Of a DNA stretch of 64,000 nucleotides, positions 12,247 to 62,770 are shown in pieces. The DNA is from an uncultured Chloroflexia bacterium (GTDB lineage: Bacteria > Chloroflexota > Limnocylindria > Limnocylindrales > CSP1-4). The stretch lies in NCBI GenBank assembly GCA_963813335.1, contig CAWEYL010000005.1, positions 43,201 to 107,200 on the forward strand, written 5' to 3'. Positions within the stretch are counted from its first letter, which is position 1. Each line of letters begins with the position of its first letter. Under the pieces are notes generated by a model. The model was given only the letters and a program-made list of their open reading frames with translations, searched no databases and was not told where the DNA came from. The position numbers and the translations under genes were made by a program.

Positions 12247-12261
12247 TCGCGTGGAGACGGC

Positions 12262-14745: not shown

Positions 14746-14773
14746 TTGCAATCGGAACGCCGATGCCTATGAT
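14746..14773 (+). promoter_or_regulatory. Candidate sigma-70-type promoter for the liv operon (TTGCAA-16 nt-TATGAT)
   Basis: Hexamers seen at 14746-14751 and 14768-14773. The -10 sits in the loop of a 7-bp hairpin (CGATGCC/GGCATCG). This would give a ~200-nt leader. Confidence 0.35.
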
Positions 14774-14977
14774 ACGGCATCGCTTCGGCGGCCACCTGCG
14801 CGCCGCTCGGACGCGGGCTCGTAGCCACCACCCGTCACGCACCAGTGCCCGGCATGCGCGGCCCTCCGAGGGGGGCGGCCAGCGCCACCGGGCTCCGGGC
14901 GCCGGGGGTTCGGCTCCGATCCGCGTCGCGGGTCGCCTGCACGGGTGGATTCGACCGGTGATTTGGAGGAGTACTGG

Positions 14978-16273: not shown

Positions 16274-16287
16274 GACCGCAGTGACGG

Positions 16288-16316
16288 GGGCCGGGGATCC
16301 AGCGGATCCCCGGCCC
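16288..16316 (+). terminator. Perfect 13-bp GC hairpin (GGGCCGGGGATCC-agc-GGATCCCCGGCCC) with a TCTCTCT tail after livJ
   Basis: Seen directly 15 nt after the livJ stop, inside the operon. Likely an attenuator or partial terminator that sets the SBP:permease ratio. Confidence 0.6.
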
Positions 16317-16362
16317 TCTCTCTACTCCCACTTGATCGTCCTGCGATAGCCAGAGGTCGACC

Positions 16363-17436
16363 GTGACGGCTGCGTCTAGCTCCGGGAGCCCCGCCGATCG
16401 CGGTCGCATCGACCCGCGGCTCCGACTGCTCGGCACCTGCCTGCTCGGGATCGTCATCTACTACCTGGTCCTGAGCGTCATGGTGGAGGGCGGCTCGGCC
16501 GTCGCGGCCCAGCAGGTCGGCAACGCCCTCACGCTGGGCGCCATCTACTCGCTCGTGGCCCTCGGCTACACGATGGTCTACGGCATCATCGAGCTCATCA
16601 ACTTCGCCCACGGCGACGTGTTCATGGTCGGCACGTTCATGTCGTTGTTCTTCCTGTCGAGCCCGCCGGCGCCGCTCGACTTCCTCGGCCTGCATCTCCA
16701 CGGACCCATCGCCGAGCCGATCACGCTGGCGCTCGTCATGTTCGCGGCCTTCGTCTTCGGGATGACGGTGATGGGCCTCATCAACGTGACCATCGAGCGC
16801 TTCGCCTACCGACCGCTGCGCCATGCCCCGCGGGTCGCCCCGCTGATCACCGCGATCGGCGTCTCGCTGATCCTGCAGAACATCATGCAGATCATCGTCG
16901 GGACCGGCGACCGCCTCGTGCCGCAGGTCTTCCCCAACACCAAGATCTCGATCATGGGCGCCAGCATCGGCGTCCTGAACATCTTCATCCTCGCGGTGTC
17001 GCTGTCCCTGATGTACGTCCTGGTGCTGTTCGTCGGGCGCACCCGGCTCGGCCGCGCGATGCGCGCCACCGCCCAGGACCAGCAGGCCGCCCAGCTGATG
17101 GGCGTCGACCTCAACCAGACGATCGCGATCACGTTCCTCATCGGTGGCGCCCTCGCCGGCGCCGCGGGCGTCTTCCAGGGCCAGTACTTCGGGTTCGTGC
17201 GCTTCGATCTCGGGTTCAACGCCGGCCTGAAGGCCTTCACGGCCGCCGTCCTCGGCGGCATCGGCAACCTGGCCGGCGCGGTGCTCGGCGGATTCATGAT
17301 CGCGTTCATCGAGGTCTTCGCCGCGGCGAACGGACAGCAGCGCTGGTCCCAGGCCATCCTGTTCATGGTCCTGATCCTCGTGCTGGTCTTCCGTCCGAGC
17401 GGCATCCTCGGCCAGCAGATCGGGGAGCGGGCATGA
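16363..17436 (+). CDS. livH: Branched-chain amino acid ABC transporter permease (LivH family)
   Basis: Polytopic membrane protein with LGYTMVYGIIELINFAHGDVFMVG, typical of LivH. Confidence 0.9.
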   Translation: MTAASSSGSPADRGRIDPRLRLLGTCLLGIVIYYLVLSVMVEGGSAVAAQQVGNALTLGAIYSLVALGYTMVYGIIELINFAHGDVFMVGTFMSLFFLSSPPAPLDFLGLHLHGPIAEPITLALVMFAAFVFGMTVMGLINVTIERFAYRPLRHAPRVAPLITAIGVSLILQNIMQIIVGTGDRLVPQVFPNTKISIMGASIGVLNIFILAVSLSLMYVLVLFVGRTRLGRAMRATAQDQQAAQLMGVDLNQTIAITFLIGGALAGAAGVFQGQYFGFVRFDLGFNAGLKAFTAAVLGGIGNLAGAVLGGFMIAFIEVFAAANGQQRWSQAILFMVLILVLVFRPSGILGQQIGERA

Positions 17437-18611
17437 CCGCCGGGACGGCCGGGGCGGCGCGGACCGCGCCATCGAAGCCGGCGTCGACCCGCGACCGGCT
17501 GACCGACTACCTCCAGATCCACCGCTCGACGACGATCATCCTGGTGATGACCGCGGTGACGCTGGGCCTGCCGCTGCTGGCCATCGTCCCGCCGTTCAGC
17601 TTCTTCCAGAAGCAGGACGTCTGGCTGTCCGGGTTCTCGAACGCCGGGGTCTTCGTGCTCCTCGCGCTGGGGCTCAACATCGTCGTCGGCCTGGCCGGCC
17701 TGCTCGACCTGGGCTACGCCGCCTTCTTCGCCATCGGCGCGTACGTCTATGCCTATGGCGCCTCGCCGTACTCCGGCCTGCACTTGCCGTTCCTGGTCAT
17801 GCTGGCGATCGCACCGCTCGTGGCCGCCACCTTCGGGGTGCTACTCGGCGCGCCGACCCTCCGTCTGCGCGGCGACTACCTGGCGATCGTCACCCTCGGC
17901 TTCGGCGAGATCGTCCCGATCGTCTTCCTGAACGCGGAGAAGTTCACCGAGGGCACCAACGGCATCGGCGGCATCTACAAGCCGGAGCTGCCGTTCGTGG
18001 AGTTCACGCTCCTGAACCCGTGGCCGTTCTACGTGCTCATGGCGGTGATGCTCACGATCACCATGATCCTGATCTACCGGTTACAGGATTCCCGGATCGG
18101 CAGATCCTGGATGGCCATCCGCGAGGATGAGCTGGCGGCCGCCGCCAGCGGCCTGAACACGGTCACGACCAAGCTGCTCGCGTTCGCCCTGGGCGCCTCC
18201 ACCGCCGGCCTCGCCGGGGTGTTCAACGCCTCCAAGCTCACGCTCGTCAGCCCGGACCAGTTCCTCTCGACGGTGTCGTTCTCCATCCTGGCGATGATCG
18301 TCCTCGGCGGCATGGGCAACATCTGGGGCGTCGCGCTCGGCGCGTTCGTCGTCTACACCATCCAGGTCGTCTTCCTCAAGCAGCTGAACACGTTCTTCGC
18401 CGCGTTGCAGGTGCCGATCCTCAAGGACCTCAACTTCGTGCAGTACCAGCTCCTGCTCTACGGCCTGGCCCTGGTGCTGATGATGTTGTTCCGCCCCGAG
18501 GGCCTGTTCCCCTCCAGACGTCGCAAGCGGGAGCTCCATGCCGCCGATGACCTCGGCGACATGGCCCTGGTCGGCGAGCAGGAGATCGGCGTGAGCGAGC
18601 TCGATCGATGA
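17433..18611 (+). CDS. livM: Branched-chain amino acid ABC transporter permease (LivM family)
   Basis: Polytopic. GLNIVVGLAGLLDLGYAAFFAIGAY and LRGDYLAIVTLGFGEI motifs. 4-nt overlaps with both neighbours. Confidence 0.9.
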   Translation: MTAGTAGAARTAPSKPASTRDRLTDYLQIHRSTTIILVMTAVTLGLPLLAIVPPFSFFQKQDVWLSGFSNAGVFVLLALGLNIVVGLAGLLDLGYAAFFAIGAYVYAYGASPYSGLHLPFLVMLAIAPLVAATFGVLLGAPTLRLRGDYLAIVTLGFGEIVPIVFLNAEKFTEGTNGIGGIYKPELPFVEFTLLNPWPFYVLMAVMLTITMILIYRLQDSRIGRSWMAIREDELAAAASGLNTVTTKLLAFALGASTAGLAGVFNASKLTLVSPDQFLSTVSFSILAMIVLGGMGNIWGVALGAFVVYTIQVVFLKQLNTFFAALQVPILKDLNFVQYQLLLYGLALVLMMLFRPEGLFPSRRRKRELHAADDLGDMALVGEQEIGVSELDR

Positions 18612-19618
18612 CGGCCTCGTTACCGGACGACGGCACGGTGCTCGCCGCCGACCACATCACGAAGCGCTTCGGCGGCCTGCTCGCGATCAACGACATCAGC
18701 TTCGACATCCCGCGCGGCGCGATCGTCAGCCTGATCGGGCCGAACGGCGCGGGCAAGACCACGTTCTTCAACATCATCGCGGGCATCTACGACCCGACCA
18801 AGGGGTCGGTCGCCGTCGAGGGCCGCCGCCTGATCGCCCACTCCGTGCGCGGCTACCTCGAGCCGTTCGTGTGGACCGTCCCGGCCGTCGTCGTCGCGAT
18901 CCTGACGGCGATCGCCACGGTGGCATCGGGCTCGGAGACCACCGGGATCATCGGTCTCGCGCTGACGCTGGGGACGCTGACCACGATGCTGATCTCGGCC
19001 GTCGCCCGGCCGGCGTGGTACACCCGGCTGCTCAACCGGCTCGGGATCTTCCGGAGCGCCCGGCCGAACGACATGGTCGAGGCCGGCCTCGGCCGGACCT
19101 TCCAGAACATCCGCCTGTTCCAGAACATGACCGCGACCGAGAACGTCCTCGTCGGGATGCATATCAAGCTCCGGGCGAACATCGTCGACGCGATGCTCTC
19201 GACGCCGAAGAACCGCCGTGAGGAGGTTTCCTCCCGGCAGCGGGCCAACGAGCTCCTGAACCTCGTCGGGCTGCGCAATCGCGGCGAGGACCTGGCCAAG
19301 AGCCTGCCGTACGGCGACCAGCGGCGACTGGAGGTGGCGCGTGCGCTCGCGAGCGATCCGAAGCTCCTCCTGCTCGACGAGCCGACGGCCGGGATGAACC
19401 CGAACGAGACGGCCCAGATGATGGCCCTGATCAACAAGCTCCGGACAGAGCTGGGGCTGACCGTCCTCCTCATCGAGCACGACATGAAGGTGGTCATGGG
19501 CATCAGCGACCGGGTCACCGTGCTGGACCACGGCGAGAAGATCGCCGAGGGGACGCCGGAGGATGTCCGGAAGGACCCCAAGGTCATCGAGGCCTACCTC
19601 GGAGCCCCGGCTGTATGA
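18608..19618 (+). CDS. livG: Branched-chain amino acid ABC transporter ATP-binding protein (LivG family) with a ~70-aa hydrophobic insertion
   Basis: Walker A GPNGAGKTT, Q-loop RTFQNIRLF, signature YGDQRRLEVARA and Walker B LLLLDEPTAGMN. There is an extra segment between the Walker A region and the Q-loop. Confidence 0.9.
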   Translation: MTASLPDDGTVLAADHITKRFGGLLAINDISFDIPRGAIVSLIGPNGAGKTTFFNIIAGIYDPTKGSVAVEGRRLIAHSVRGYLEPFVWTVPAVVVAILTAIATVASGSETTGIIGLALTLGTLTTMLISAVARPAWYTRLLNRLGIFRSARPNDMVEAGLGRTFQNIRLFQNMTATENVLVGMHIKLRANIVDAMLSTPKNRREEVSSRQRANELLNLVGLRNRGEDLAKSLPYGDQRRLEVARALASDPKLLLLDEPTAGMNPNETAQMMALINKLRTELGLTVLLIEHDMKVVMGISDRVTVLDHGEKIAEGTPEDVRKDPKVIEAYLGAPAV

Positions 19619-20376
19619 CGACCGCGACCGTGGCCGCCACCGACACGCCGCGCGGGGAGCCGGGCGAGACCCTCCTCCACCTCGACGGCGTCCACACCTA
19701 CTACGGCCATATCCACGCCCTGCAGGGCGTCTCGCTCGATGTCCGGCGCGGCGAGATCGTGACCTTGATCGGCGCGAACGGAGCCGGCAAGACGACGACC
19801 CTCAAGACGATCTCCGGGCTGCTCCATCCGAGATCCGGGACCATCACCTTCGAAGGCAAGGACATCTCGAAGGCGAACGCGCACGACCTGGTCCGCGCCG
19901 GCATCAGCCAGGCGCCCGAGGCCCGCCGGATCTTCTCGCGCATGACCGTCCTGGAGAACCTCCAGATGGGCGGCTTCACGCGGCCGACGAAGGAGCTCGC
20001 CCAGGACACCGAGCGGGTCATGACGCTGTTCCCGCGCCTGCGCGAGCGCACCCACCAGCAGGGTGGGACGCTGTCGGGCGGCGAGCAGCAGATGCTCGCG
20101 ATCGGACGGGCCCTGATGGCCCGGCCGCGGGTCCTGCTGCTCGACGAGCCATCGCTGGGGCTCGCCCCCATCCTCGTCCAGCAGATCTTCGCGATCATCC
20201 GCGAGATCAACGACGCCGGGACGACGATCCTGCTCGTCGAGCAGAACGCGCTCCAGGCGCTCACCGTGGCGCATCGCGGCTACGTCCTCCAGACCGGGAC
20301 GGTCCTCCTGTCCGGCCCGGCGTCGGAGCTGATCACCAACGACATGGTGCGAAAGGCCTACCTCGGCGAGGTCTGA
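19615..20376 (+). CDS. livF: Branched-chain amino acid ABC transporter ATP-binding protein (LivF family)
   Basis: GANGAGKTTTLKTISG, LSGGEQQMLAIGRAL and LLLDEPSLGLAP. Confidence 0.92.
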   Translation: MTTATVAATDTPRGEPGETLLHLDGVHTYYGHIHALQGVSLDVRRGEIVTLIGANGAGKTTTLKTISGLLHPRSGTITFEGKDISKANAHDLVRAGISQAPEARRIFSRMTVLENLQMGGFTRPTKELAQDTERVMTLFPRLRERTHQQGGTLSGGEQQMLAIGRALMARPRVLLLDEPSLGLAPILVQQIFAIIREINDAGTTILLVEQNALQALTVAHRGYVLQTGTVLLSGPASELITNDMVRKAYLGEV

Positions 20377-20423
20377 CCCCGGATGATCCCGACCCCGACC
20401 GCCACGGACCGGGGCGGCCGGCG

Positions 20424-21125
20424 ATGAGCCCGCCGCTCGAGCGGGTCGGCGGACGGGGACCGAGCGAGAGGACGCTGCTCCGGGTCGTCGTGCTGGTCCT
20501 GTTCGCGGCCCTGCTGGCCGTGGTCAAGCCGTGGAGCGGCGGCGAGACGGGCGGGGTCGCGCCCGGGCCGTCGCGGGGAACGGCGGCGGCGGCGAGCGCG
20601 ACGCCCGCCGGACCGACGCCGAGTCCGACACCCGTCGATCCCGCGTCGGCCTTCTGCATCACGCCGAGCGACTGGCGCCTGACCTCGCTCGAGATCTTCG
20701 ACCACCAGACCATCCGGGTCTGGCAGACGATCAGCCCGATCCACGCGACGGGACCGACCGACCCGGACCTGCCGGAGGGCCTGGTCGTGTCGACGTCGGT
20801 CCGCGCGGTCGGCTGGTGCGCCCCGACGGCCGTGGACATCCGCCCGGCCGGGCCCGTGACCACGCGGATCTGGCGGGTCCCGACCGATGGCGAGCCGGTC
20901 GCGCTGGACCTCCGGCCGCGCCTCGGTCCGAGCGACCTGGGCGAGGACTACGCGGCACCCGACCTCGGCGCGGGAGCCAGCGACTGGACGCCGGGGCGCT
21001 ACGTCTTCGAGATCGCGGAGCCGAAACCGGGCCGCTCGTGGTGGTTCGCCGTGACGGTCCGCCGGTTCGTGCCCGACGGGCCGGCCGTCGCCCCCACGGA
21101 GTCACCCGCCTCGCCGGTACCATGA
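20424..21125 (+). CDS. Hypothetical membrane-anchored or secreted protein
   Basis: ATG at 20424. N-terminal TM segment (LLRVVVLVLFAALLAVV), an S/P/T-rich linker, then a globular region (FCITPSDWRLTSLEIFDHQTIRVWQ...RYVFEIAEPKPGRSWWFAVTV). Confidence 0.55.
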   Translation: MSPPLERVGGRGPSERTLLRVVVLVLFAALLAVVKPWSGGETGGVAPGPSRGTAAAASATPAGPTPSPTPVDPASAFCITPSDWRLTSLEIFDHQTIRVWQTISPIHATGPTDPDLPEGLVVSTSVRAVGWCAPTAVDIRPAGPVTTRIWRVPTDGEPVALDLRPRLGPSDLGEDYAAPDLGAGASDWTPGRYVFEIAEPKPGRSWWFAVTVRRFVPDGPAVAPTESPASPVP

Positions 21126-47911: not shown

Positions 47912-48270
47912 TTGACCGGCATCTGGTACATCGTGGGCTTCGCCTTCGCCGGCGTCTCGTTCGTGTTCCTGACGATCGGCGCCGCGTGGCTCATCTCGCA
48001 CCGCAACCAGGGCGACGAGCACAAGGGCCTGCCCTACGAATCCGGGATCGACACCTACGGTGACACCCACGGCCGGTTCGGCCTGTCGTTCTACATCTAC
48101 GCCCTGCTCTTCGTCGCCTTCGACATCGAGGTCGTCTTCATCTACCTCTGGGCGATCATCTTCCGCTCGATCGGCTCGTGGGCGGCCTCGTGAGCATGTT
48201 CATCTTCGTGGCCATCCTGCTGCTCGGGCTCGCCTACGCCTGGCGCAAGGGCGTGCTCACGTGGCGCTGA
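47912..48270 (+). CDS. nuoA: NADH-quinone oxidoreductase subunit A (as sequenced: 1-nt deletion near 48187-48190)
   Basis: TTG start. ...[43 protein letters not shown] lies in one frame. The canonical C-terminus [26 protein letters not shown] lies in the -1 frame, after GCG GCC TCG TGA. Confidence 0.85.
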
Positions 48271-48974
48271 CCCCGCCGCGCGATCCGGCGGCGCCCCGCA
48301 GCGACCTGCCCGCCACCGCGGGCTCGAGCGAGCTGATCGTGCCGCTCGTCGTCCCGAACACGCTCTGGCAGGCGGACGATCCCGAGGCATACGACGGCGG
48401 CCGCGAGAGCGACATCACCCACCTGCGCGAGTACGAGGCGAGCGGCGCTGGGTCGCCGCGACGACGCGCGCTGGAGCGGCGTCCTCGAGGTCATCCCGAC
48501 CAAGGCGGACTACGTCCTGGACCTGATCCGGCGAACAGCCTGTGGCCGCTGCTGTCCGGCCTCGCCTGCTGCGCGATCGAGATGATGTCCGCGGCCACCT
48601 CGAAGAACGACATGGACCGCTGGGGCATGTTCCCGTTCCGGGCCAGCCCGCGCCAGGCGGACGTGCTGATCGTCGCCGGCACGCTGACCACCAAGATGGC
48701 CGGCCCGCTGGTCCGCCTCTGGGAGCAGATGCCGGAGCCCAAGTGGTGCGTGGCGCTGGGCGACTGCACCTGCTCGGGCGGCCGCTACAAGCGGAGCTAC
48801 TCCACGGTCGAGGGGATCGACCGGGTGATGCCGGTCGACGTCTACATCCCGGGCTGCCCGCCCCGCCCCGAGGGCCTCATCTACGGGATGATGAAGCTCC
48901 AGCAGCTGGTCAAGGAGCGCCGCGGCCACTGGCCCGATCGCGCCATCGGCCCCACCGTGCCGGAGGGCGTCTGA
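48261..48974 (+). CDS. nuoB: NADH-quinone oxidoreductase subunit B (ORF open, but a ~50-90-nt stretch is read out of frame)
   Basis: [35 protein letters not shown] and GCPPRPE. The conserved [19 protein letters not shown] that should precede NSLWP is only found in another frame. Confidence 0.88.
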
Positions 48975-48976
48975 GC

Positions 48977-49545
48977 GTGGATCGACGGCTTCAAGGCACG
49001 CCTCGAGGCGCGCTTCGCCGACCAGCTGACGGGACCCGTCCGCCAGCGCCATGACGAGACCGAGATCCGCATCGCGGCGGGCGACGTCGTGCCGGTCCTG
49101 ACGCGCCCTCCATGACGAGCCGGCGTTCCACTTCGAGTTCCTGGCGGACCTCGCGGGCGTCGACACCGGCCAGGTCATGCAGGTCGTCTACCACCTGTGG
49201 AGCGAGACCACGCCGGACTGGCTGCGCGTCATCGCCGACGGCCTGTCCCGCGAGGACCCGCGCGTCCCGTCCGCGACGTTCCTCTGGAAGGGCGCCGAGT
49301 GGATGGAGCGCGAGGCCTACGACATGTTCGGCATCACGTTCGAGGGCAACCGCGACCTGCGCCGGATCTACATGCCGCCCGACTACACGAGCTTCCCGCT
49401 CCGCAAGGACTTCTACCTGGCCGACGACGCCGCGCGCTCGCCCGGCGGCGGGCGTCCGGCCGATGGAGCGCACCCACGCCCCGACGGCGGCGCCGGCCTC
49501 GGCGCTCGTCCGCCGGTCGCCGGCGTGACCGAGGACCGCCCGTGA
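48977..49545 (+). CDS. nuoC: NADH-quinone oxidoreductase subunit C (as sequenced: start-region frame problem and 1-nt insertion near 49106-49108)
   Basis: IDGFKARLEARFADQLTGPVRQRHDETEIRIAAGDVVPVLTR, then (frame +1) LHDEPAFHFEFLADLAGVD...VYHLWS...WKGAEWMEREAYDMFGITFEGNRDLRRIYMPPDY. The only start codon (GTG 48977) is out of frame by 1 with the following codons. Confidence 0.8.
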
Positions 49546-50763
49546 CGACGACCACCCGACGCCCGTCCCTCGACGACCCGCGCGTCCCGCTCGACCGCGA
49601 GCTGGGCGTCTTCGAGCCGATCCCGCCGTACCCGCCGCGGACCGAGCGCGAGGCCGAGTTCTACACGCTCGGCGACGGCGAGATGCTGATCAACATCGGC
49701 CCGCAGCACCCGTCGACCCACGGCGTGCTCCGCGTCGTGCTCAAGCTCGACGGCGAGAAGGTCGTCGACCTCGACCCGGTCCTCGGCTACCTCCATCGCG
49801 GCGTCGAGAAGCTGTGCGAGAACGCCGACTACCACCAGGCGATCTGCTACATCGACCCGCTCGAGTACGTCAGCTCGCTCTTCTGCGAGTGGCCCGGCGT
49901 CATGGCCTTCGAGAAGCTCCTCGACGTCCAGGTCCCGCGCCGCGCGGAGTACATCCGCGTCCTCGCTACCGAGCTCAACCGGATCGCCAGCCACGCGCTG
50001 TTCCTCGGCTGGATGGCCCTGGACCTCGGCGGCCTCACGCCGATCCTCTGGTCGTTCATCGAGCGCGACGAGATCGTCGAGATGCTGGCGTCGCTCACCG
50101 GCCAGCGGATGCTCTTCAACTACATGCGCATCGGCGGCGTCAACGGCGACCTGAACCACGAGTTCATGAGCCGCCTCGGCGACTGGATGTCGCACGCGAC
50201 CGAGCAGATCGAGGCCGGCAACGCGCTGCTCAACGAGAACGAGATCTTCGTCCGCCGGATGCGCGGCCTCGGCGTCATCGACTCGAAGACGGCCCTGCGG
50301 ATGGCGATGACCGGCCCGAACCTGCGCGCGACCGGCCTGCCGTTCGACGTCCGCCGGGCGCACCCGTACTGCGTCTACCCGGAGCTCGAGTTCGACATCC
50401 CGACGCGCGCCGAGGGCGACTGCCTGGCCCGCTACCTGCTCCGCATGGACGAGATCAAGCAGAGCCTGCGGATCATCGACCAGTGCCTCCACCAGATGCC
50501 CGACGGCCCGGTCATGGCCAAGCTCCCGCGCCTGCTCCGGCCGCGGCCCGGCCAGCGCGTACGCCGCGATCGAGGGCCCGCGCGGCCAGTACGCGGCCTA
50601 CGCCATCAGCGACGGCACCGACCAGCCGTTCCGGATGCGCATCCACGACCCCTCGTTCGTCCACCTCCAGTCGGTCGGCCTGATGATGCCCGGCCACCTC
50701 GTCGCCGACACGATGGCGGTCATGGCCTCCCTCGACCCGATCATGGGCGGCGTCGACAAGTGA
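49542..50763 (+). CDS. nuoD: NADH-quinone oxidoreductase subunit D (as sequenced: 1-nt insertion near 50556-50559)
   Basis: INIGPQHPSTHGVLRVVLKLDGE, GYLHRGVEKL. The C-terminus YAAIEGPRGQYAAYAISDGTDQPFRMRIHDPSFVHLQ...DPIMGGVDK lies in the +1 frame. Confidence 0.9.
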
Positions 50764-50797
50764 CGGTCGATCGGTCGGTCCGTGGTCGCGCCTGACC

Positions 50798-52104
50798 TTG
50801 CCGGGCAAGGTCATCTTCACCGTGGTGCCGGTGCTGCTGGCGTCGCTGATCGCGCTCGTCGCGGTCGTCGCGATCCTCGGGCCGACCATCGTCGACTTCC
50901 TCGCGAACAACCTGCCGATCGTCCGCTTCGTCGTCGCGGTGACGGTCGTCCTGCTGATGACCGTGCCGACGGCCTTCCTGATCATCTACATGGAGATGAA
51001 GGTCATCGCGCTGATGAACCTGCGGATCGGCCCGGACCGGGTGGGCCCGTTCGGGTCGCTCGCTGTCGGTGGTCCACGGGCTCAAGGTCCTCATGAAGGA
51101 GGACTTCACGCCGACCGGCGCCGACCCGATCGTCTTCACGTGGGCGCCGGTCGTCGTCTACCTCGCCAGCGTCATGAGCCTGCTGGTCATCCCGTTCGCT
51201 CCCGGGCTCTTCGGGCAGGACCTCAACCTCGGGCTGCTCTACTTCTTCGCGATCGGCGGCCTGTCGGTCGTCGGCCTGCTGATGGCCGGCTGGTCGAGCT
51301 TCAACAAGTACTCGCTGCTGGGCGGGCTGCGCTCCGCGGCCCAGGTCGTCAGCTACGAGATCCCGCTCACCCTGTCGGTCGTCGGGATCATCCTGCTGGC
51401 CGGCACGATGAGCCTCAACCAGATCGTCCTGGACCAGGGCGGCTGGTTCATCGACTGGTACATCTTCCGCCAGCCGCTCGGCTTCCTGATCTTCTTCATC
51501 GCCGCGACCGCGGAGGCGAACCGGACCCCGTTCGACCTGACCGAGGCGGACTCCGAGATCGTCGCCGGCTTCGCCACCGAGTACTCGGGCATGCGCTTCG
51601 GGTTCTTCTTCTTCGCCGAGTACGTGAACGTGTTCATCATCTCGGCCCTGACCGTGACCCTGTTCTTCGGCGGCTGGAACGCGCCGTTCCCCTGGCCGTG
51701 GCCGGTCACCGTCAACCTCGACCCGGGCGAGCCTCGGGATCGTGCTGCTGCTCCTCGTCGCGATCGTCCCGCTGGTCGTGACGCTGGTCTTCGCGGCCCC
51801 GTTCTGGCTCGCGTCGTCGCGGATCAAGGGCTGGCAGGCGCTCATCGTCGGCTTCGTGCTCGCGAACATCTTCATCGTCGCCGTCATCGGCGCCTGGGCG
51901 TACATCGGGCTCGACTGGGTCGCCGGCCTCGTCTGGTTCCTGGGCAAGACCTACGTCTTCGTGTTCACGTTCGTGTGGATGCGCGGCACGCTGCCCCGCG
52001 TGCGCATCGACCAGCTCATGGACTTCGCCTGGAAGTGGCTGCTGCCCGCCGCGCTGCTCAACCTGTTCGTGACCGCGACGGCGATCGTGGTGGTGGGCAA
52101 GTGA
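50798..52104 (+). CDS. nuoH: NADH-quinone oxidoreductase subunit H (as sequenced: 1-nt insertions near 51062 and 51726-51730)
   Basis: Three frame segments. The first ends ...[15 protein letters not shown]. The second is [17 protein letters not shown]...[37 protein letters not shown]. The third is SLGIVLLLL...[26 protein letters not shown]. Confidence 0.9.
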
Positions 52105-52779
52105 TCAACGAGCTGATCCCGGGCCTCGGCATCGTCAAGGGCATGGCGCTGACCCTGCGCCGCTTCTTCGAGCCGAAGGTCACGGTCATGTACCCGGAGG
52201 TGCCGGTCGACGTCTCGCCCAAGTTCCGCGGCCGGCTCCAGCTCCTGTACGACGAGTACGGCACGCTCAAGTGCGAGACGTGCTTCCAGTGCGCCCAGGC
52301 CTGCCCGATCGAGTGCATCGACATGGGCGGCATGGACACCCGCGGCCGGTTCCACGTCCACTGGGGCGCGCCGGAGACCTACGGCGAGCGTCGCGAGGAA
52401 TCCGCGCTGCGGCGCTCCGGCCGCCCGGTCCCCGACCCGGCCTACCGGCCGTTCGCAGGCGGTCGACCTCGCGACGGTCGACGCGATCCTCGAGACCTAC
52501 GACCACGACCCGGCGCACCTGCTCGCGATCCTCGAGGAGACACAGGCCGCCTACGGATACCTGCCGGTCGCCGCGCTCAAGCGGATCAGCCAGCTCACCG
52601 GCACCTGGTACGCGATGATCTACGGCACCGCGTCGTACTACTCGCACCTGCGCTTCGAGCCCGCCGAGGCGGCCGACCAGGCGGCCGCGATGGCCGCCCA
52701 CCGACCGGCCGAGACCGCCTACCTCGCGGCCCTCGGGACGGCCCTCGGTGGCGGCACGGCCCAGCGGGCGGACGCGTGA
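52101..52779 (+). CDS. Fusion of the NuoI N-terminal half (one 4Fe-4S motif) with a NuoE-like N-terminal helical domain lacking the 2Fe-2S domain (1-nt indel near 52455-52460)
   Basis: GTG overlaps the nuoH stop. [49 protein letters not shown]...[13 protein letters not shown] is NuoI-like. From 52459, frame +1 reads [62 protein letters not shown], which is NuoE-like. No stop occurs in any forward frame between 52271 and 52618. Confidence 0.7.
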
Positions 52780-52781
52780 CC

Positions 52782-54107
52782 ATGGCGACCCTGCTGAAGA
52801 CCCCCAACGGCTGGCCGAAGATCCTGCCCGCGCGGTCGACGCTGACCGACCCGCTCGACCTCGACGCCGCCGTGACCGTCGGCGCGTTCGCCGGCCTGCA
52901 CGCGGCGGTCCGCGACCTCGGGCCGACCGCGACCATCGCCGCGATCGCCGCCTCGGGGCTGCGCGGGCGAGGCGGCGCCGGCTTCCCGGCGGGTGACAAG
53001 TGGCGGACCGCGGCGACGACCGAGGCGCCGCGGCGCTACGTCGTGGCCAACGGCTACGGCGCGGACCCGGCGTCGGGCACGGACCGCTACCTGATGGAGC
53101 ACGACCCGTACGGCGTCATCGAGGGGGTCGCCATCGCGGCCTTCGCCATCGGCGCGGAGGAGGCCTTCATCGCGGTCCGTGCCGAGGACAGCGAGGCCGT
53201 CCGCCGCCTCGAGGCCGCGATCGGCGCCGCCACCGACGCCGGGTTCATCGGCGAGGACGCCTTCGGCCCGCGTCGCGACCTGTCCGTCGTCGTCCGACCC
53301 GTCCAGGGCGCGTACATGCTCGGCGAGGAGACCGTGCTGCTGAAGGCCCTCGAGGGCAAGCGCGGCCAGCCCGAGCAGCGGCCGCCGCATCCCGCGGAGC
53401 GCGGCCTGTGGGGCATGCCGACGGTCGTCCAGAACGTGCAGACCCTCGGCGCGCTCGGCTGGATCCTTCGTAACGGTCCGGCCGCCTACGTCGCCACCGG
53501 GTCCAAGGCCAGCCCGGGCACCGTCCTCGTCCAGGTGCGCACCCCGTCCGGCGACGGGATCGCCGAGGTGCCGCTCGGGACGCCGCTGCGCAAGGTCGTC
53601 GCGCTCGGCGGCGCGCTCCCCGACGGCCGGTCGATCAAGGCCGTGCTCGTCGGCGGCCCGTCCGGCGGCCTGCTGCCGCCCGAGGCGCTCGACACGCCCT
53701 ACGACTTCGGGCCGCTCCGCGCGGCCGGCGCGCACATCGGCTCGGGCTCGGTGGTCGTCGCCGACGACCGGGCCTGCATCGTGGACCTCGCCCGCCTGCT
53801 GACCCGGTTCTGCGCCGGCGAGGCGTGCGGCAAGACCATCCCGTGCCGGATCGGCACGCGCCGCCTGGTCGAGATCGCCGACCGGGTCGTGGACGGCCGT
53901 CCGCGCCCCACCGACATGGACCTCCTGACCGACCTCTCGGCCGATATCGCGGCCTCCGCGCTGTGCGACCACGAGCGCCTGACGACCCTCCCGCTCACGA
54001 GCGGGATGCGATACTTCCGCTCCGAACTGGACGAGCACATCCTCAACGCTGCATGCCCGGCCGGCGTCTGTCACCCGATCGCGGTGGCCGCCGGAGCGGC
54101 CCGATAA
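52782..54107 (+). CDS. Divergent NuoF-like (51-kDa family) subunit
   Basis: GLRGRGGAGFPAGDKW, GAYMLGEETVLLKALEGKRGQPEQRPPHPAERGLWGMPTVVQNVQT and EACGKTIPCRIGT. Several canonical FMN/NADH/N3 positions are substituted. Confidence 0.85.
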   Translation: MATLLKTPNGWPKILPARSTLTDPLDLDAAVTVGAFAGLHAAVRDLGPTATIAAIAASGLRGRGGAGFPAGDKWRTAATTEAPRRYVVANGYGADPASGTDRYLMEHDPYGVIEGVAIAAFAIGAEEAFIAVRAEDSEAVRRLEAAIGAATDAGFIGEDAFGPRRDLSVVVRPVQGAYMLGEETVLLKALEGKRGQPEQRPPHPAERGLWGMPTVVQNVQTLGALGWILRNGPAAYVATGSKASPGTVLVQVRTPSGDGIAEVPLGTPLRKVVALGGALPDGRSIKAVLVGGPSGGLLPPEALDTPYDFGPLRAAGAHIGSGSVVVADDRACIVDLARLLTRFCAGEACGKTIPCRIGTRRLVEIADRVVDGRPRPTDMDLLTDLSADIAASALCDHERLTTLPLTSGMRYFRSELDEHILNAACPAGVCHPIAVAAGAAR

Positions 54108-54115: not shown

Positions 54116-56753
54116 ATGGCCGACCTCCTCACCCGCCCCGACAGCCGCCCGGAGACGGACCCCGTTCCCGAGCCCGAGTCGCTCGCCGACCGGCTCCTGG
54201 CGACCCGCTCGCCGCAGCGGCCGCAGTCGTCGGCGCGCATCCGCATCGAGGTCGACGGCCGGGTCGTCGAGGGCTTCGAGGGCCAGACGATCCTCGAGGT
54301 CTGCCGCGACAACGGCATCGAGATCCCGACGCTCTGCTACGAGCCGAAGCTGCCCGGCTTCGGGGCGTGCCGGATGTGCGTGGTCGAGGTGGAGGGCGAG
54401 GAGCACCCGCCGATCTCCTGCTCGCGGACGTGCGAGCCCGACATGAAGGTCCAGACCCAGACCGAGGAGGTCCGCCGCCTGCGCCGGACGAACCTCGAGC
54501 TGATCTTCAGCGACCACAACGCCTACTGCCTGCCGCCCTGCCAGAACAAGTGCCCGAGCCACATCGACATCCCGGGCTTCCTCAAGGCCAACGCCGAGGC
54601 CAACTGGCGCGAGAGCACGCGGATCTTCAAGCGGACGATCCCGTTCCCCTCGGTCCTCGGGCGGGTCTGCCCGGCCCCGTGCGAGGAGCACTGCCGGCGC
54701 GACGAGGTCGACGAGGCGATCGCCATCCGCGACAGCCACCGCTACGCCGGCGACCAGGTCCTCAAGGCGATGCTCGACGAGGACGTCGATCCGCCGCTGC
54801 CGTTCGAGGTCCAGGCACCGTCCGGTCGGCGGGCCGCGGTCATCGGCTCCGGCCCGGCCGGGATGGCGGCCGCGTTCTACCTCCTGCTGGCCGGCCACGA
54901 GGTCACCATCTACGAGCGCGACCCGGCGCCGGGCGGGATGCTCCGCTACGGGATCCCGCAGTACCGCCTGCCCAAGGTCGAGGTCCTCGAGGCCGAGTAC
55001 GAGTCGGTCACCCGGCTCGGCGGCAAGATGGTCTGCAACATGGGCCTCGGGCGCGACTTCACGCTCGACGACCTGACCAACCAGGGCTTCGACGCGGTCG
55101 TGGTCGCCATCGGCTGCTACGACACCAACAAGCTGGGCATCCCCGGCGAGGACGCCGCCGAGGTCCTCGACGGCCTCGAGTACCTGCGCACCGCGACGCT
55201 CGGCCTGCCGTACCCCGAGCACGCCGGCAAGCGCGTCGTCGTCATCGGCGGCGGGTTCACCTCGATGGACTGCTCGCGGACGTCGGTCCGCCAGGGCGCC
55301 AGCGAGGTCACGCTCGTCTACCGCCGCGACATGAAGGACATGCCGGCGTCCAACGAGGTCCACGAGGCCATCGAGGAAGGCGTCACCGCCATCTTCCAGG
55401 CCGGCCCGACGCGGGTCGTCCTCGACGACAAGGGCAACGTCACCGGCGTCGAGTTCATCCGCATGGCGCTCGGCGAGCCCGACGCGTCCGGCCGCCGCCG
55501 CCCGGAGCCGGCGCCCGGCACCGAGTTCATCGTCCCGTGCGACCGCGTGCTGCTCGCCATCGGCCAGGGCCCGGACCTCACCTGGATCGGCCCGGGCTCC
55601 GAGGGCCCGGAGGCCACCAAGCAGCGCCGCCTCAAGGCCGACGCGGTCACGTTCGAGACCGGCCGGCCCGGGCGTCTTCGGCACCGGCGACGTGCGCATC
55701 GGCGCCGCGACCGTGGTCCAGGCCATCGCCGAGGGCCGCCGCTCCGCGTACGCCGTCGACGCGTTCCTCAAGGGCCTCGACCTCTCGTCGATCCGGGCCC
55801 GCCAGACGCTCGCCGAGCCGCAGCCCGAGTTCCTCTCGATCGTCCCGTTCACCGGCGAGATCAAGGAGCCGCGCTACCGGATGGCGGCCATGGAGGCCGA
55901 GGAGCGCAACCACAACTACATCGAGTACGAGCTGCCCTACACCCGCGAGGCCGCGGTCGCCGAGTCCACCCGCTGCCTGCAGTGCACCTGCGAGGCGATC
56001 GGCTTCTGCGACCTGCGCCGCCTCGGCATCGAGTACGGCACCACGCTCAAGACGCTCGAGCCGCAGTACCACCAGGGCGCCGGCTACCGGAGCGTGACCG
56101 AGAACCGCTTCACCGGGGTCAACCACGACTACGTCCGTGACGACTCGCACGCGTTCATCCTCCGCGAGCCGTCGCGCTGCATCGACTGCGGGCGCTGCGC
56201 CCAGGTCTGCTCGGAGGTGGTCGGCGCGGCCTGCTACGACTTCATGCGGATCGGCTTCGACACGCTGGTGACGACGCCGCTCGACATGAGCCTCAACGAC
56301 ACCCCGTGCGTGTCCTGCGGCCGCTGCGCCGAGACGTGCCCGACGGGCGCCCTCATGCCGAAGCCACGGATCCTGCAGAAGTACGACGTCGACGAGAGCC
56401 GCTGCATCCTGTGCGGCATCTGCGTCGACGCGTGCCCCTACGACGCGCTCCGCGACGGCGGCGACATCGAGCTCGCCCATACGAGCCGGTCCGAGCCGAT
56501 GATCGACCTGATGGCGATCGCCGCCATCGACCGCGAGACCGAGATCACCTACATCCGGCGCGAGCGCGGCTGGGCGGATGCCGCCGCCGCCGAGGGCCGC
56601 GTGCTCGACCCCGCCCGGATGCTCCCGATGCTGCCCGCCACGATCGCGGGGCTCCCGTCCGGCAACGGCAACGGGCATGGGCACGGCGACGGGCACGACC
56701 ACTCGAATGGCCACGGCGCCGGGACGGCGCTGCTCGGCAGCGGGCACGAGTAG
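54116..56753 (+). CDS. ~878-aa fusion: NuoG-type 2Fe-2S domain + GltD-like FAD/NAD(P)H oxidoreductase + NuoG/HydA-type 4Fe-4S domain + NuoI C-terminal half + His-rich tail (1-nt insertion near 55668-55673)
   Basis: [30 protein letters not shown] is 2Fe-2[20 protein letters not shown]...[12 protein letters not shown] plus [14 protein letters not shown] and [13 protein letters not shown] are GltD-like. After the frameshift come [36 protein letters not shown] and [16 protein letters not shown]. Then comes [28 protein letters not shown], which is the NuoI second motif. Confidence 0.75.
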
Positions 56754-56759: not shown

Positions 56760-57356
56760 GTGCTCAGGAAGCTCGTCCCGATCGTCCTCGCCCTGATGGT
56801 CCTCGGCGCCGTCGCGACCATCGCCGCGGTGATGGTGGTCGTCCTCGGCCAGGACTGGGACGACGCGCTCCTGTGGATCCTCGCCTCGATCATGATCGGC
56901 GCCGGGCTCCTCGTCGTGACGATGCGCGACATCATCCGCTGCGGCCTGGCGATGATCGTCTGCTTCGGCGCCCTCGCCGGGATCTACGTCCTGATGGGGG
57001 CGCCGCTGATCGGCGCGGCCCAGGTCATCGTCTACATCGGCGCGATCAGCGTCCTGATCCTGTTCGCGATCATGCTGACCCAGACCAAGGACGCGCCGTC
57101 CCGCCTCGTCTTCCAGACGCAGGCCGGTCCCGCGGCCATCGCCGCGATCGTGATCGCGCTCGTGATCGCCCTCTCGGTCGCGGCCACCGACTGGCCCGGC
57201 GTCGTGGCCGAGCGGATCCGCTACGCGACCGACGCGATGGCCAGGTTCATGTTCGACAGCTTCGTCCTGCCGTTCGAGGTCATCAGCGTGGTCCTGCTGG
57301 CCGCGGTCATCGGCGGCGTCTACCTCGCCAAGCGCGAGCCGGGCGGCCCGTCGTGA
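56760..57356 (+). CDS. nuoJ: NADH-quinone oxidoreductase subunit J
   Basis: 198-aa membrane protein. [27 protein letters not shown] and [16 protein letters not shown]. Confidence 0.9.
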
Positions 57357-57664
57357 GCGACTCGCTCGACGCGTATCTCGTCCTGTCGGGGATCCTGTTC
57401 GCGATCGGCTCGTTCGGGTTCCTGGCCCGCCGCAACGCCATCAGCATGCTGATGTCGATCGAGCTGATGCTCAACGCGGTCAACCTCTCGATCGTCGCAT
57501 TCGGGGCCTTCAACCCCGTGCTCGGGGTGCAGGGCCAGATCATCGCGCTGTTCGTGATGGCCATCGCCGCCGGTGAGGCCACCGTGGGCCTGGCCATCGT
57601 CATCGCCATCTACCGCAACAAGAAGACGCCGCTCGTCGACGAGTACGACGACATGCGCCGATGA
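57353..57664 (+). CDS. nuoK: NADH-quinone oxidoreductase subunit K
   Basis: GTG overlaps the nuoJ stop. [38 protein letters not shown]...[17 protein letters not shown]. Confidence 0.92.
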
Positions 57665-59624
57665 GCCCCGAGTCGCTCATCCCCCTGCTCGTCATCCTGC
57701 CGCTCAGCGGCTTCGCCATCACGGCGCTGATCGGCCGGCGGCTCGGCAAGCAGGCCCACTGGATCCCTGTCCTGGCCGTCTTCGCGGCGTGGCTCATCGC
57801 GATGAGCGTGTCGTACGCGGCGCTGACCGGCGCGGCGCCGTTCGGCGAGCACGGCTACGGCGCGACCCTCTTCGACTGGATCCCGGCCGGCGCGTTCCAC
57901 GTCGAGGCCGGGTTCTTCGTCGACCAGCTGACCGCCTGCCTGCTGATCGTGGTCACGACCATCGGCCTGCTGGTCCACGTCTACTCGATCGGCTACATGA
58001 GCCACGACCCGGGCTACTGGCGGTTCTTCGCCTACCTGAACCTGTTCATGTTCAGCATGCTCACGCTGGTCCTCGCGGACTCGTGGCTGGTGGTGTTCGT
58101 GGCGTGGGAGCTGGTCGGCCTGTCCAGCTACCTGCTCATCGGCTTCTGGTTCCGCAAGCGCTCCGCGGCCCTCGCCGCCAAGAAGGCGTTCATCGTCAAC
58201 CGCGTCGGCGACATCGGGTTCGCGCTCGGGATCATGGCCATCTTCGTGAACACCGGGACGCTGAACATCCGCGAATCGCTCGACGTGCTCACCAGCGCGA
58301 CCCTCGTCGCCTTCCCGATCCCGATCGCGATCGTCGCGCTGCTGGTGTTCGCCGGGGCGATGGGCAAGTCCGCCCAGTTCCCGCTCCACGTCTGGCTGCC
58401 GGACGCGATGGAGGGCCCCACCCCGGTCTCCGCCCTCATCCACGCGGCGACGATGGTCAACGCCGGCGTCTACCTGGTCGCCCGGGCGAACCCGCTGTTC
58501 GCGGCCTCGCCGTCCTCGCTGGTCGTGGTCGCGGCGATCGGCATCTTCACGGCCATCCTCGCCGCCTCCATCGCGATGACCCAGACCGACATCAAGCGGG
58601 TCCTCGCCTATTCGACGCTGTCGCAGCTGGGCTACATGTTCGCGGCGCTCGGGGTCGGCGCGTTCACCGCGGCGATCTTCCACCTCATGACCCATGGCTT
58701 CTTCAAGGGCCTGCTCTTCCTCGGCTCGGGCTCGGTCATCCACGCCGTCCACGAAGAGCAGGACATGCGCAGGATGGGCGGCCTCTCGAAGAAGATCCCG
58801 ATCACCTACGCGACGATGCTCATCGGCTCGCTCGCGATCGCCGGGATCCCGCCGCTGGCCGGCTTCTTCTCCAAGGACGAGATCCTCGGCGAATCCTTCA
58901 AGCAGGGCTTCCTGTGGGTGTGGGCGATCGGCTTCGTGGTCGCCGGCCTGACCGCGTTCTACATGTTCCGGCTCATGGGCCTCACCTTCTGGGGCGCGTT
59001 CCGCGGCCCGAAGGCCGTCTGGGACCGGATCCACGAGTCGGCGCCGGTCATGACCATCCCGCTGATCCTGCTGGCCATCGCGTCGGTCTTCCTCGGCATG
59101 CTCCTCGGGCTGCCGTTCGGGGCCAGCACGATCTCGGGCTGGCTCGCCCCGGTCTTCGAGGAGTCGGTCCAGGCCCTCGGCCACGAGGAGGCCGCCTTCG
59201 CCCTGTTCGGCATCGACGGCGTGCTCATCCTCGCGAGCGTGACCGTGGCGGTGGTCGGCATCGCGATCGCCTGGCGGCTGTTCGGCGTCGAGCTCCTCGG
59301 GCTGAAGCTGACCGCGCGCCCCGAGCGCGTCCGCGAGCTGAGCGCCAGGGTCCCGTTCCTCTACCGCGCCTCGCTCAACAAGTGGTGGTTCGACGAGCTC
59401 AACCACCTGCTGTTCATCGTCATCGGCGGCAAGGTCGCGAACGCCCTGTGGTGGTTCGACCGCGAGGTCGTCGACGGCACCGTGAACCTGGTCGGGCGCT
59501 CGACCGTCGCCTCGGGCCGCGGGCTCCGCCGCGTCCAGACCGGCCACGTCCAGAACTACGCGCTAGGCATCGCGGTCGGGCTCATCGTCATGGCCGGCTC
59601 GTACCTCCTGCTGGTGGGACGCTG

Positions 59625-59625
<1 letters not shown>
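57661..59625 (+). CDS. nuoL: NADH-quinone oxidoreductase subunit L
   Basis: 654 aa, Mrp-antiporter-like. [48 protein letters not shown]. Confidence 0.95.
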
Positions 59626-61279
<1,654 letters not shown>

Positions 61280-61283
<4 letters not shown>

Positions 61284-62770
61284 GCCACGACCTCTTCGTC
61301 CTCAGCCCCCTGATCGCGGCAGTCCTCACGGCGGCCGCGGTCCTCATCGTCGACCTGATCCGGCCCGGCAAGGCCATGGTCGCCGTGGCCACCGCGCTGA
61401 TCGGCCTGGCGATCACGACCGCGGTCACCCTGGCGGTCGGCCTGACCTCGAGCGGCGGCTTCGCCCAGATGACCGCGTTCGGCGGCGTCTACACGGTCGA
61501 CGCGCTGACGACCTTCCTCGACATCCTGTTCATCGCGATCATCGCGCTGACGATCTCGTTCGCACCGGACTACCTGCTCGCGCGCGGGCTGCCGGTCGCG
61601 GAATTCATCATCGTGCTGCTGTTCGCGATGACCGGCGCGATGCTGCTGTCGGCCTCGACCGACCTGCTGCTGCTCTTCCTCGGCCTCGAGCTGATGGTGC
61701 TCCCCGGCTACCTGCTGGCGGCCTACCACAAGACCGACTCGTACTCGACCGAGGGCGCGATCAAGTACTTCCTGCTCGGCTCGTTCAGCTCGGCGATCTT
61801 CCTGTTCGGCCTTGCCTTCATCTGGGGCATGACGGGCACGACCAGCGTCGACGGCGTCTACGCGGCCCTGAGCGCGATCGTCGCCGGGACGGCGCCGCTG
61901 GCGCCCGGCCTCGCGATGGGGTTGGCGTTCCTGACCACCGGTGTCGCCTTCAAGATCGCGGCGGTCCCGTTCCACTACTGGACGCCGGACGCGTACCAGG
62001 GCTCGCCCACGCCCATCACCGGCTACCTGTCGGTCGGGCCGAAGGTCGGCGCGTTCGCCCTGATCCTGCGCCTCTTCGGCGAGGCGATCTGGCCGCTCCA
62101 CGACTGGTGGCTGCCGGTCGTCATCGTGCTGGCGACGCTGACCATGACCCTCGGCAACCTCGTCGCGCTGACCCAGGACAACGTCAAGCGGATGCTGGCC
62201 TACAGCTCGATCGCGCACACCGGCTACATGCTGGTCGGCCTCGCGGCCTACGCCTCGGGCCAGATCCAGGGCCTCGAGGGGCTCCTCTACTACAGCGCCG
62301 CCTACGCGGCCATGAACCTGGGCGCGTTCGCGGTCATCGCCGCGCTCCAGAAGCGGCCGGGGGTCACCTCGCAGCTCGACACGTTCGCGGGGCTCGGGCG
62401 CAAGGAGCCGATCCTGGCGATCCTGCTGACCCTCTTCCTGCTGTCACTGACCGGCATCCCGCCGACCGCCGGGTTCTTCGCCAAGGCGTACGTGATCCTG
62501 GCCGCCGTGCAGGCCGGCGGGCCGATGACCGTGCTCGCCGTCATCGCGGTGCTCAATGCCGCGGCCGCCGCGTTCTACTACCTGCGCGTCGTCGTCTACA
62601 TGTTCATGCGCGATCCGGCCAGCGACCTCCCGGCGCTCCGCCACGGCCGGCTGGTCTGGAGCGGACTGGCGGTCGCGACGACCTTCACCATCATCCTCGG
62701 GCTGTTCCCGGAGCCGCTGCTGCAGGTGGTCGGCGAGGCCGCCGCCGCCATCTCGAAGATCGGGCTCTAG
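61280..62770 (+). CDS. nuoN: NADH-quinone oxidoreductase subunit N
   Basis: TTG overlaps the nuoM stop. LFLGLELMVLPGYLLAAY, FKIAAVPFHYWTPDAYQGSPTPITGYLS. Confidence 0.93.

Follow-up and report, generated by a model that had tools for sequence, protein, structure and literature searches.

A conserved NuoI–NuoE-type fusion protein as a probable adaptor subunit of a non-canonical complex I in Limnocylindrales

Schut et al. 2022 predict Nuo-Bfu enzymes, with BfuABC standing in for NuoEFG, in Deferribacteres, Proteobacteria, Planctomycetes and Nitrospirae (PMC9304861). In the Mbx-like clusters described by Degli Esposti 2015, a GltD-related flavoprotein stands in place of NuoI, and rubrerythrin was noted there (PMC4758237). 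In the structure of NfnABC, the N-terminal domain of NfnC lies between NfnA's Fdh-like domain and the Rossmann fold of NfnB and "tightly anchors" the subunit; the minimal bifurcation site consists of flavin mononucleotide (FMN), cluster B1 and cluster C1, and non-bifurcating homologues are characteristically without the B2-B5 sites (PMC11829005). Deleting the 2Fe-2S cluster of StnA abolishes bifurcation while NADPH oxidation persists (PMC10482914). Here we analyze a 64,000-nucleotide stretch, hereafter the window, from an uncultured Chloroflexia bacterium of the Limnocylindrales (assembly GCA_963813335.1, contig CAWEYL010000005.1, positions 43,201 to 107,200 of the forward strand), with a G+C content of 71.6%. 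The gene under study, at 52101-52779, lies in a nuo operon and joins the N-terminal half of NuoI to the N-terminal domain of a NuoE-type protein. On the sequence evidence, we put at about 0.75 the probability that its product is an adaptor subunit made of two parts, in a non-canonical complex I whose NuoI is split and whose input module is Nfn/Stn-like.

The gene and its parts are as follows, with related loci designated by L numbers and related proteins by P numbers.

52101-52779, plus strand: fusion gene, comprising the NuoI N-half, a conserved connector, a NuoE/BfuC N-terminal domain and a short Ala-rich tail; 225 codons once the extra G is removed.
52272-52316, plus strand: sole 4Fe-4S motif of the fusion protein, equivalent to the first CxxCxxCxxxCP motif of NuoI and aligning to the first motif of TYKY/Nqo9.
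52329-52454, plus strand: connector, the first residues of which correspond to the inter-motif loop of NuoI; low AlphaFold confidence.
52455, plus strand: extra G causing the frame change, absent from L002, L003, L016 and L019.
52462-52662, plus strand: NuoE/BfuC-type N-terminal helical domain (PF01257), not followed by the thioredoxin-like 2Fe-2S domain.

The GTG at 52101 overlaps the nuoH stop codon as GTGA. From this start the NuoI-like part, beginning VINELIPG, runs in frame mod3=0 as far as DPAYRPF. Third-position GC in this frame is 0.93-1.0 up to about 52420 and then drops; frame mod3=1 takes over at 0.93-1.0 and ends in RADA at the stop codon 52777-52779. The two parts sit in different frames with no stop between them. 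The initial annotation had reported a move of the coding signal to the +1 frame at 52455-52460, and both the switch in third-position GC and a DNA alignment with four relatives, which locates one extra G at 52455 (ttc-G-cag), agree with it.

Relatives encode both parts as one uninterrupted open reading frame (ORF), as expected from the original proposal of a fusion rather than two genes. When proteins were searched with the conceptual fusion, 2967 matches came back; the top 120 are 217-234 residues long and cover 89-100% of the query. Two of them, P0001 and P0002, are 97% and 95% identical to the conceptual fusion; both have 225 residues, and their sequence runs unbroken through the junction (...DPAYRPFQAVDL...). 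In species-representative genomes, we found at least 562 loci at which a relative is encoded, and the 80 that we kept are nearly all labelled Candidatus Limnocylindria/Limnocylindrales or generic Chloroflexota. At 81 of 81 fetched loci the fusion is in one frame, as a single ORF of about 225 residues; many of these loci come from short-read assemblies (MEGAHIT or SPAdes, to go by contig names of the k141 or NODE type). The ORF is a genuine fusion, conserved among Chloroflexota of soils and fresh waters. In the databases the proteins of this architecture go by the names "ferredoxin," "NAD(P)H-dependent oxidoreductase subunit E," "FAD-dependent oxidoreductase" or "formate dehydrogenase major subunit."

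Using tblastn with intact orthologues (including NuoH of L016) and blastn against L002, we identified ten single-base G/C insertions that are specific to the window: 48989, 49103, 49453, 50556, 50769, 50782, 51061, 51731, 52455 and 55672. There is also a 2-bp insertion at 48176, which breaks nuoA. Together, the insertions disrupt nuoA, nuoC, nuoD, nuoH, the fusion gene and a downstream gene for a protein of about 880 residues, while nuoB, the nuoF-like gene and nuoJ-nuoN are intact. In the broken genes, the tblastn high-scoring segment pairs (HSPs) have 68-91% protein identity to relatives and contain no stop codons. The indel at 52455 is private to the window assembly, and nine more like it lie in the operon, so the extra G is almost certainly a sequencing or assembly error. 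The insertions cluster within about 7 kb, for which local low coverage or a polishing failure are possible causes. The contig names of L002, the closest relative, indicate a long-read assembly, which has scattered 1-bp indels and split genes of its own.

Ten frame-breaking insertions inside 7 kb could also mark a cluster of decaying pseudogenes with a true frameshift, from which the organism would make no fusion protein but just a shortened NuoI N-half with its tail out of frame. We give this idea little credence: all ten changes are single-base G/C insertions, with zero deletions and zero stop codons, protein identity to relatives is kept on either side of the breaks, nuoJ to nuoN of the same operon are intact, and the long-read L002 carries scattered indels and split genes too. 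Programmed ribosomal frameshifting at 52455 might likewise join two parts that lie in different frames with no stop between them, but it is scarcely credible, as the arrangement is not conserved (all 81 related loci, like the homologues numbering thousands in the databases, show no frame change) and nine more insertions in neighboring genes would require the same explanation. Both readings were rejected on this comparative evidence.

We next consider what the two parts of the fusion are. The first matches TIGR01971 at positions 1-64 of 121 (E 1.2e-14), scoring 54 bits against a curated cutoff of 113, and NF004536 at positions 12-87 of 180. The fusion protein has one CxxCxxCxxxCP motif instead of the two of NuoI, the second being found in another ORF at 56403-56438. 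All five Cys of the 52272-52316 segment are invariant among 36 sequences. For the second part, the initial annotation had suggested a hidden Markov model alignment to PF01257; the domain is matched at positions 2-64 of 145, with 40.3 bits against a gathering score of 24.8. The conceptual fusion has no Cys beyond residue 72, and the chain ends 38 residues past the NuoE-type domain, so the early observation that no cluster N1a Cys precedes the stop is correct. These profile matches and the single-ORF relatives also uphold the original description, in which the N-half of NuoI is fused to a NuoE-type N-terminal domain that has lost its 2Fe-2S domain. In terms of BfuC, the missing part is the C1 2Fe-2S domain, which forms the flavobicluster with FMN and B1. 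When the window was queried by tblastn with C-terminal domains of NuoE and N-terminal domains of BfuB, no separate 2Fe-2S domain emerged (best E 0.4).

An AlphaFold2 model of the fusion protein is confident for the NuoE-type domain only, where residues 121-170 form a helical bundle with a predicted local distance difference test (pLDDT) score of 75-94. Using Foldseek, we matched this bundle to the N-domains of NfnC, StnA, FdsG, HydC and NuoE, with root-mean-square deviations of 1.6-2.3 Å over 63-68 residues. NfnC and StnA are the top structural matches (approximately 1.8 Å, 38-40% identity). Sequence comparison with proteins of known structure gives a similar order: E is 2e-15 for NfnC, 5.5e-14 for StnA and 4.5e-4 at best for complex I NuoE. 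The likeness to NuoE seen at first is therefore sound for the N-terminal domain, but these matches place the domain nearer to the BfuC subunits NfnC and StnA than to NuoE of complex I.

The segment between the two parts had been described as a linker. A segment is indeed there, but it does not behave as a passive spacer: residues 76-118 are the best-conserved stretch of the fusion protein in Limnocylindria, with a mean conservation of 0.95 and 30 of 43 positions invariant. The connector is probably an interface rather than a spacer.

The rest of the operon supplies the missing half of NuoI. Its genes are listed below.

47912-50795, plus strand: nuoA, nuoB, nuoC and nuoD, in the same order as in L001; the frames of nuoA, nuoC and nuoD are broken by insertions.
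50798-52104, plus strand: nuoH, with 1-bp insertions at 51061 and 51731; tblastn with NuoH of L016 gives three HSPs in three frames.
52782-54107, plus strand: NuoF/BfuB-like FMN subunit, 441 residues, core only (PF01512 and PF10589).
54116-56753, plus strand: NfnA/StnC-like subunit of about 880 residues, with an extra base at 55672; tblastn matches in two frames.
56367-56519, plus strand: NuoI C-half, with the second CxxCxxCxxxCP motif at 56403-56438.
56769-62755, plus strand: nuoJ, nuoK, nuoL, nuoM and nuoN, frames unbroken.

In clean relatives the order is nuoABCDH, the fusion (about 225 residues), the nuoF-like gene (441 residues), the gene of about 880 residues and nuoJKLMN. The nuoF-like gene directly follows the fusion in every locus with enough downstream flank (80 of 81). 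Neither the window nor the clean relatives have a separate nuoI between nuoH and nuoJ. The location is nevertheless that of nuoI, since the N-half starts at the nuoH stop and the gene carrying the C-half ends 16 nucleotides before nuoJ. The halves are approximately 4 kb apart, with three gene products encoded between them. In the long-read assembly of the close relative L001, a 40-codon ORF is called between nuoJ and nuoK (15131-15253); it may be genuine or may stem from a frameshift there. A tRNA scan of the window found zero tRNAs.

The tail of the 880-residue protein, taken from its L016 orthologue, matches TIGR01971 at positions 71-115 of 121 (E 3.7e-11). When the N-half and this tail are joined in silico, they match the same model continuously over positions 1-114, with 94.7 bits and an E value of 2.8e-27. 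The halves from the window itself (52101 onward and 56367-56519), joined in the same way, align end to end with residues 23-158 of plant TYKY (7AR7_I, E 1.3e-22) and with residues 7-128 of Thermus Nqo9 (E 2.8e-19). The junction of the joined halves falls in the loop between the two cluster motifs of NuoI. As judged from these alignments, NuoI is split, and its second half is the C-terminus of the 880-residue protein encoded two genes downstream.

The 880-residue protein itself resembles the large subunits of the Nfn and Stn enzymes. It consists, in order, of a NuoG-type 2Fe-2S domain, a GltD/NfnL-type module for flavin adenine dinucleotide (FAD) and NADPH, a CxxCxCxxxxxC motif, a 2x[4Fe-4S] domain and the orphan CxxCxxCxxxCP motif. 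In relatives it is conserved as a single ORF of about 880 residues, and Pfam identifies Fer2_4, Fer4_20 and Pyr_redox_2 in the L016 orthologue. Residues 43-775 are collinear with residues 4-699 of Caldicellulosiruptor NfnA (9BOV_A, E 5e-170); the E values are 2e-147 for Thermococcus sibiricus NfnA (9N5U_A) and 7.5e-147 for Sporomusa ovata StnC (8OH5_C). The protein has no C-terminal Fdh/NuoG-like domain, through which NfnA and StnC form tetramers. Instead, it ends about 100 residues past the NfnA alignment, with the NuoI C-half. At its very end is a Gly/Asn/His-rich tail of variable length (56658-56717 in the window, with a 6-bp indel relative to L002 at 56678), which may be a metal-binding or low-complexity tail.

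The NuoF-like subunit points in the same direction. Among PDB entries, HydB, StnB and NfnB match it at approximately 1e-103, compared to 3.5e-76 for the best complex I NuoF. It covers only core residues ~112-527 of StnB/NfnB, so that the extra N- and C-terminal Fe-S domains of BfuB are absent from the 441-residue subunit of the window. The FMN/NADH motifs (GLRGRGGAGFPAGDKW and GEET...PTVVQNVQT) are present, as are the FAD motif and, for NADPH, GGGFTSMD...VYRR; we take all of these to be functional sites, as in NuoF and GltD. Taken together, the matches indicate that the three interposed genes are not canonical nuoEFG and appear most like an NfnABC/StnABC (Bfu-family) NADPH/NADH transhydrogenase.

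Several observations weigh against an adaptor in a two-flavin complex I with a split NuoI. The first concerns the FMN-adjacent cluster. In the window its motif (53808-53855) reads FCAGEACGKTIPCRIG, with Thr in place of the second Cys, and in 72 of 72 Limnocylindria loci it is CGK[T/S]IPC rather than CGKCxPC. An extra Cys lies five residues upstream of the motif in 71 of these 72 loci, and the Thermoleophilia, Ktedonobacterales and other-Chloroflexota relatives keep the canonical ESCGKCVPCRLG. This may reflect a ligand swap or an altered cluster, and the FMN branch in Limnocylindria may be altered, rewired or impaired. The other points concern NuoI. At 94.7 bits, the joined halves remain under the curated NuoI cutoff. 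AlphaFold2 gives a pLDDT of only about 35 for the NuoI half of the fusion protein, and its model of the 880-residue protein (mean pLDDT 37, from a 28-sequence alignment of 84-90% identity) is unusable for motif pairing. Finally, NF004541 aligns weakly across motif 2 and the tail of the 880-residue protein (query 59-125).

The pairing of the two NuoI halves is thus inferred from their alignments, and the NuoI N-half could instead remain unpaired with the distant C-half. The third motif of the 880-residue protein would then pair within its own chain, and the fusion would serve as a membrane-arm anchor with one cluster or none. That some NuoI models, such as NF004541, take motifs 2 and 3 of the 880-residue protein as a unit speaks for this possibility, as does the lack of a usable AlphaFold model for either half. 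We nonetheless consider it unlikely. Motifs 1 and 2 jointly align with the 2x[4Fe-4S] domain of NfnA, StnC, HydA and HoxU, so that motif 3 is orphaned. This motif and the lone motif of the N-half, taken with their flanks, are exactly complementary on the NuoI models and on TYKY, and all four Cys of the N-half motif are invariant. To our knowledge, a lone CxxCxxCxxxCP motif is unable to ligate a cluster by itself in the ferredoxin fold, which also counts against unpaired halves.

Distant relatives suggest how a NuoI-fused, truncated NuoE domain arose. A filter-free search of 1.84 billion cluster representatives yielded 175 clusters at E <= 1e-10, and distant versions of the fusion occur in Ktedonobacterales, other Chloroflexota and Thermoleophilia. 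At 30-40% identity, P0351, P0352 and P0365 consist of the NuoI N-half and a complete NuoE, in which the cysteines of CxxxxC...CxxxC are kept. P0372 is laid out likewise except that its fourth Cys is lost, and P0335 and P0370, also at 30-40% identity, are truncated like the fusion in the window.

The gene neighborhoods of distant versions differ as well. In a Thermoleophilia metagenome-assembled genome (MAG; L082, JBKQWK010000285, 6205-20756), nuoABCDH is followed by NuoI-N fused to full NuoE (251 residues), BfuB, an NfnA-like protein of 831 residues and nuoJKLMN. This fusion keeps the four 2Fe-2S Cys, and the BfuB-type subunit, at 643 residues, has the N-terminal 2Fe-2S and C-terminal 2x[4Fe-4S] domains that the window subunit is missing. 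By its gene content, the locus appears to attach a full bifurcating core to the membrane arm of complex I. In a MAG from another Chloroflexota lineage (L084, 6220-14901), the fusion has the truncated form and the cluster ends with rubrerythrin, not nuoJ-nuoN. The Ktedonobacterales locus (L083, 9467-14454) is limited to nuoB, the fusion and the genes for the F-like and large subunits, and membrane-subunit genes are absent nearby. In all three, the large subunit ends in a NuoI C-half with RC[IM]FCG.CVEVCP...FE[LF]. Judging by this distribution, the fusion and the NuoI split are older than the loss of the 2Fe-2S domain. Because distant relatives carry NuoI-N fused to a complete NuoE, the form in the window looks like a reduced, truncated derivative.

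Three loci have additional features. L084 has a second nuoA-nuoB pair 5 kb downstream of the cluster (20036-20606). L070 (Chloroflexota MAG JANOTJ010000375, 7049-11984) is a second copy of the fusion and nuoF-like genes in the same MAG as L039; it is preceded not by nuoH but by a GltD-like paralogue (34% identity) ending in two 4Fe-4S motifs. This copy could represent either a soluble form of the module or a mixture introduced by binning. In L023 (Limnocylindrales, 10007-20660), nuoH, the fusion and the nuoF-like gene are present and the series then stops, with the 880-residue gene and nuoJ absent within 8.6 kb. Unrelated genes come next; judged by eye only, one is a likely thymidylate synthase gene of the ThyX type and another resembles that for the E1 component of 2-oxoglutarate dehydrogenase.

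We propose that the two NuoI halves would reassemble into a 2x[4Fe-4S] fold, holding clusters N6a and N6b, on NuoH, NuoB and NuoD; NuoI binds these clusters and forms the bridge from NuoG to NuoB. In the 2x[4Fe-4S] ferredoxin fold, one motif supplies three of the Cys for each cluster, and the other motif supplies the fourth. Because of this exchange, both N6a and N6b would bridge two polypeptides, stapling the NADPH-flavoprotein to the quinone module. The NuoE-type domain would hold the FMN subunit, replacing the missing Fdh-like C-terminal scaffold of NuoG/NfnA. Electrons would enter at FMN (from NADH) and at FAD (from NADPH), and leave via the split NuoI to cluster N2 and quinone. Since the Fdh-like domain is gone here, it is plausible that covalent linkage of the anchor domain to NuoI keeps the FMN subunit attached. 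A purely tethering role had been suggested at the outset, and it is supported by the anchoring that the homologous NfnC domain provides in NfnABC (PMC11829005).

Such an enzyme would not be expected to bifurcate electrons, because the C1/N1a 2Fe-2S domain and the extra BfuB Fe-S domains with the B2-B5 sites are absent. The module is Bfu-derived, and in L082 the 2Fe-2S domain of BfuC is still complete and BfuB still has Fe-S domains at both termini; a Nuo-Bfu enzyme that bifurcates or confurcates electrons, as predicted by Schut et al. 2022, can therefore be envisaged. For the window we regard this as very improbable. The C1 domain and the extra BfuB domains are missing there and in all Limnocylindria. 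In StnABC, loss of the StnA cluster alone is enough to end bifurcation (PMC10482914), and the B2-B5 sites are those characteristically missing in non-bifurcating homologues (PMC11829005). The complex is most likely a non-bifurcating NAD(P)H:quinone oxidoreductase with two flavin entries, as far as its predicted cofactors indicate.

The operon would have arisen most simply if a cassette of three genes, resembling stnABC, had inserted in frame into the nuoI of an ancestor with 11 subunits. A single insertion of this kind would create both fusions as well as the order E-like, F-like, large subunit. The order stnA, stnB, stnC within the cassette is an assumption from the gene names. Tentatively, and as a possibility more than an expectation, we extend this scheme to Limnocylindria and related Chloroflexota and Thermoleophilia. 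They may have a proton-pumping complex I whose input module was gained apart from NuoEFG, via a cassette into nuoI, with N6a and N6b ligated across two polypeptides, and which oxidizes NADH at FMN and NADPH at FAD. In the Thermoleophilia form, where the bifurcating core is complete, the redox reactions of NADH, NADPH and quinone could be linked to the proton gradient.

If true, this would be an independent natural graft of a soluble flavoprotein module onto the 11-subunit core during complex I evolution, with the graft site still visible as a gene split inside nuoI; the origin of the NADH-input module is a long-standing question. It would also mean that a conserved 2x[4Fe-4S] connector subunit tolerates assembly from two chains. 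The module points to direct NADPH entry into the respiratory chain of abundant, largely uncultured soil and freshwater bacteria. Relatives with and without the NuoE 2Fe-2S domain would serve as natural "deletion mutants" for the debated role of cluster N1a/C1. Under current annotation, nuoI, nuoE and nuoG would be falsely counted as absent in metabolic reconstructions. Although its basis is sequence evidence, we believe that the finding is of considerable interest to specialists.

We found no published description of a NuoI-split/NuoE-fusion architecture in the searchable literature, the coverage of which is incomplete. Several described systems share some of its features. Like the Mbx-like clusters, the locus has a GltD-type NAD(P)H flavoprotein at the NuoI position, and L084 shares the rubrerythrin as well (PMC4758237). 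Unlike them, it keeps NuoI, in split form, and adds a NuoF-like FMN subunit and a NuoE-type anchor. As described in the Nuo-Bfu passages of Schut et al., Nuo-Bfu also has a Bfu-type module instead of canonical NuoEFG in a nuo operon, but it is defined there by full bifurcating BfuB, whereas the module in the window is without bifurcation hardware and lies between nuoH and nuoJ (PMC9304861). The term NuoI does not occur in the text of that paper, and its Nuo-Bfu passages mention no split NuoI, NuoI fusions, or NfnA-type NADPH domain or large subunit.

Compared with NuoI/TYKY/Nqo9, the locus has the same N-terminal region and first CxxCxxCxxxCP motif, encoded after nuoH, and is collinear once the C-terminal tail is added. 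It differs in being made of two polypeptides, each fused to another subunit and neither reaching the curated family score. With NuoE/NDUFV2/Nqo2 (PF01257) it shares the helical domain at the N-terminus and a gene position immediately upstream of a NuoF-like gene. In contrast to those proteins, the domain is fused to NuoI and is without the thioredoxin-like domain and the four N1a Cys; its similarity to complex I NuoE is only weak (E 4.5e-4 or worse). The BfuC subunits NfnC (9BOV, 9BP5, 9N5U) and StnA (8OH5) are the best matches in both sequence and structure, and the neighboring subunits match NfnB/StnB and NfnA/StnC. Relative to NfnABC/StnABC, however, the C-terminal 2Fe-2S domain is gone, the B partner is stripped of its N- and C-terminal Fe-S domains, and the A partner, without its Fdh-like domain, ends in half of NuoI; the entire module also lies inside the operon of a membrane complex I.

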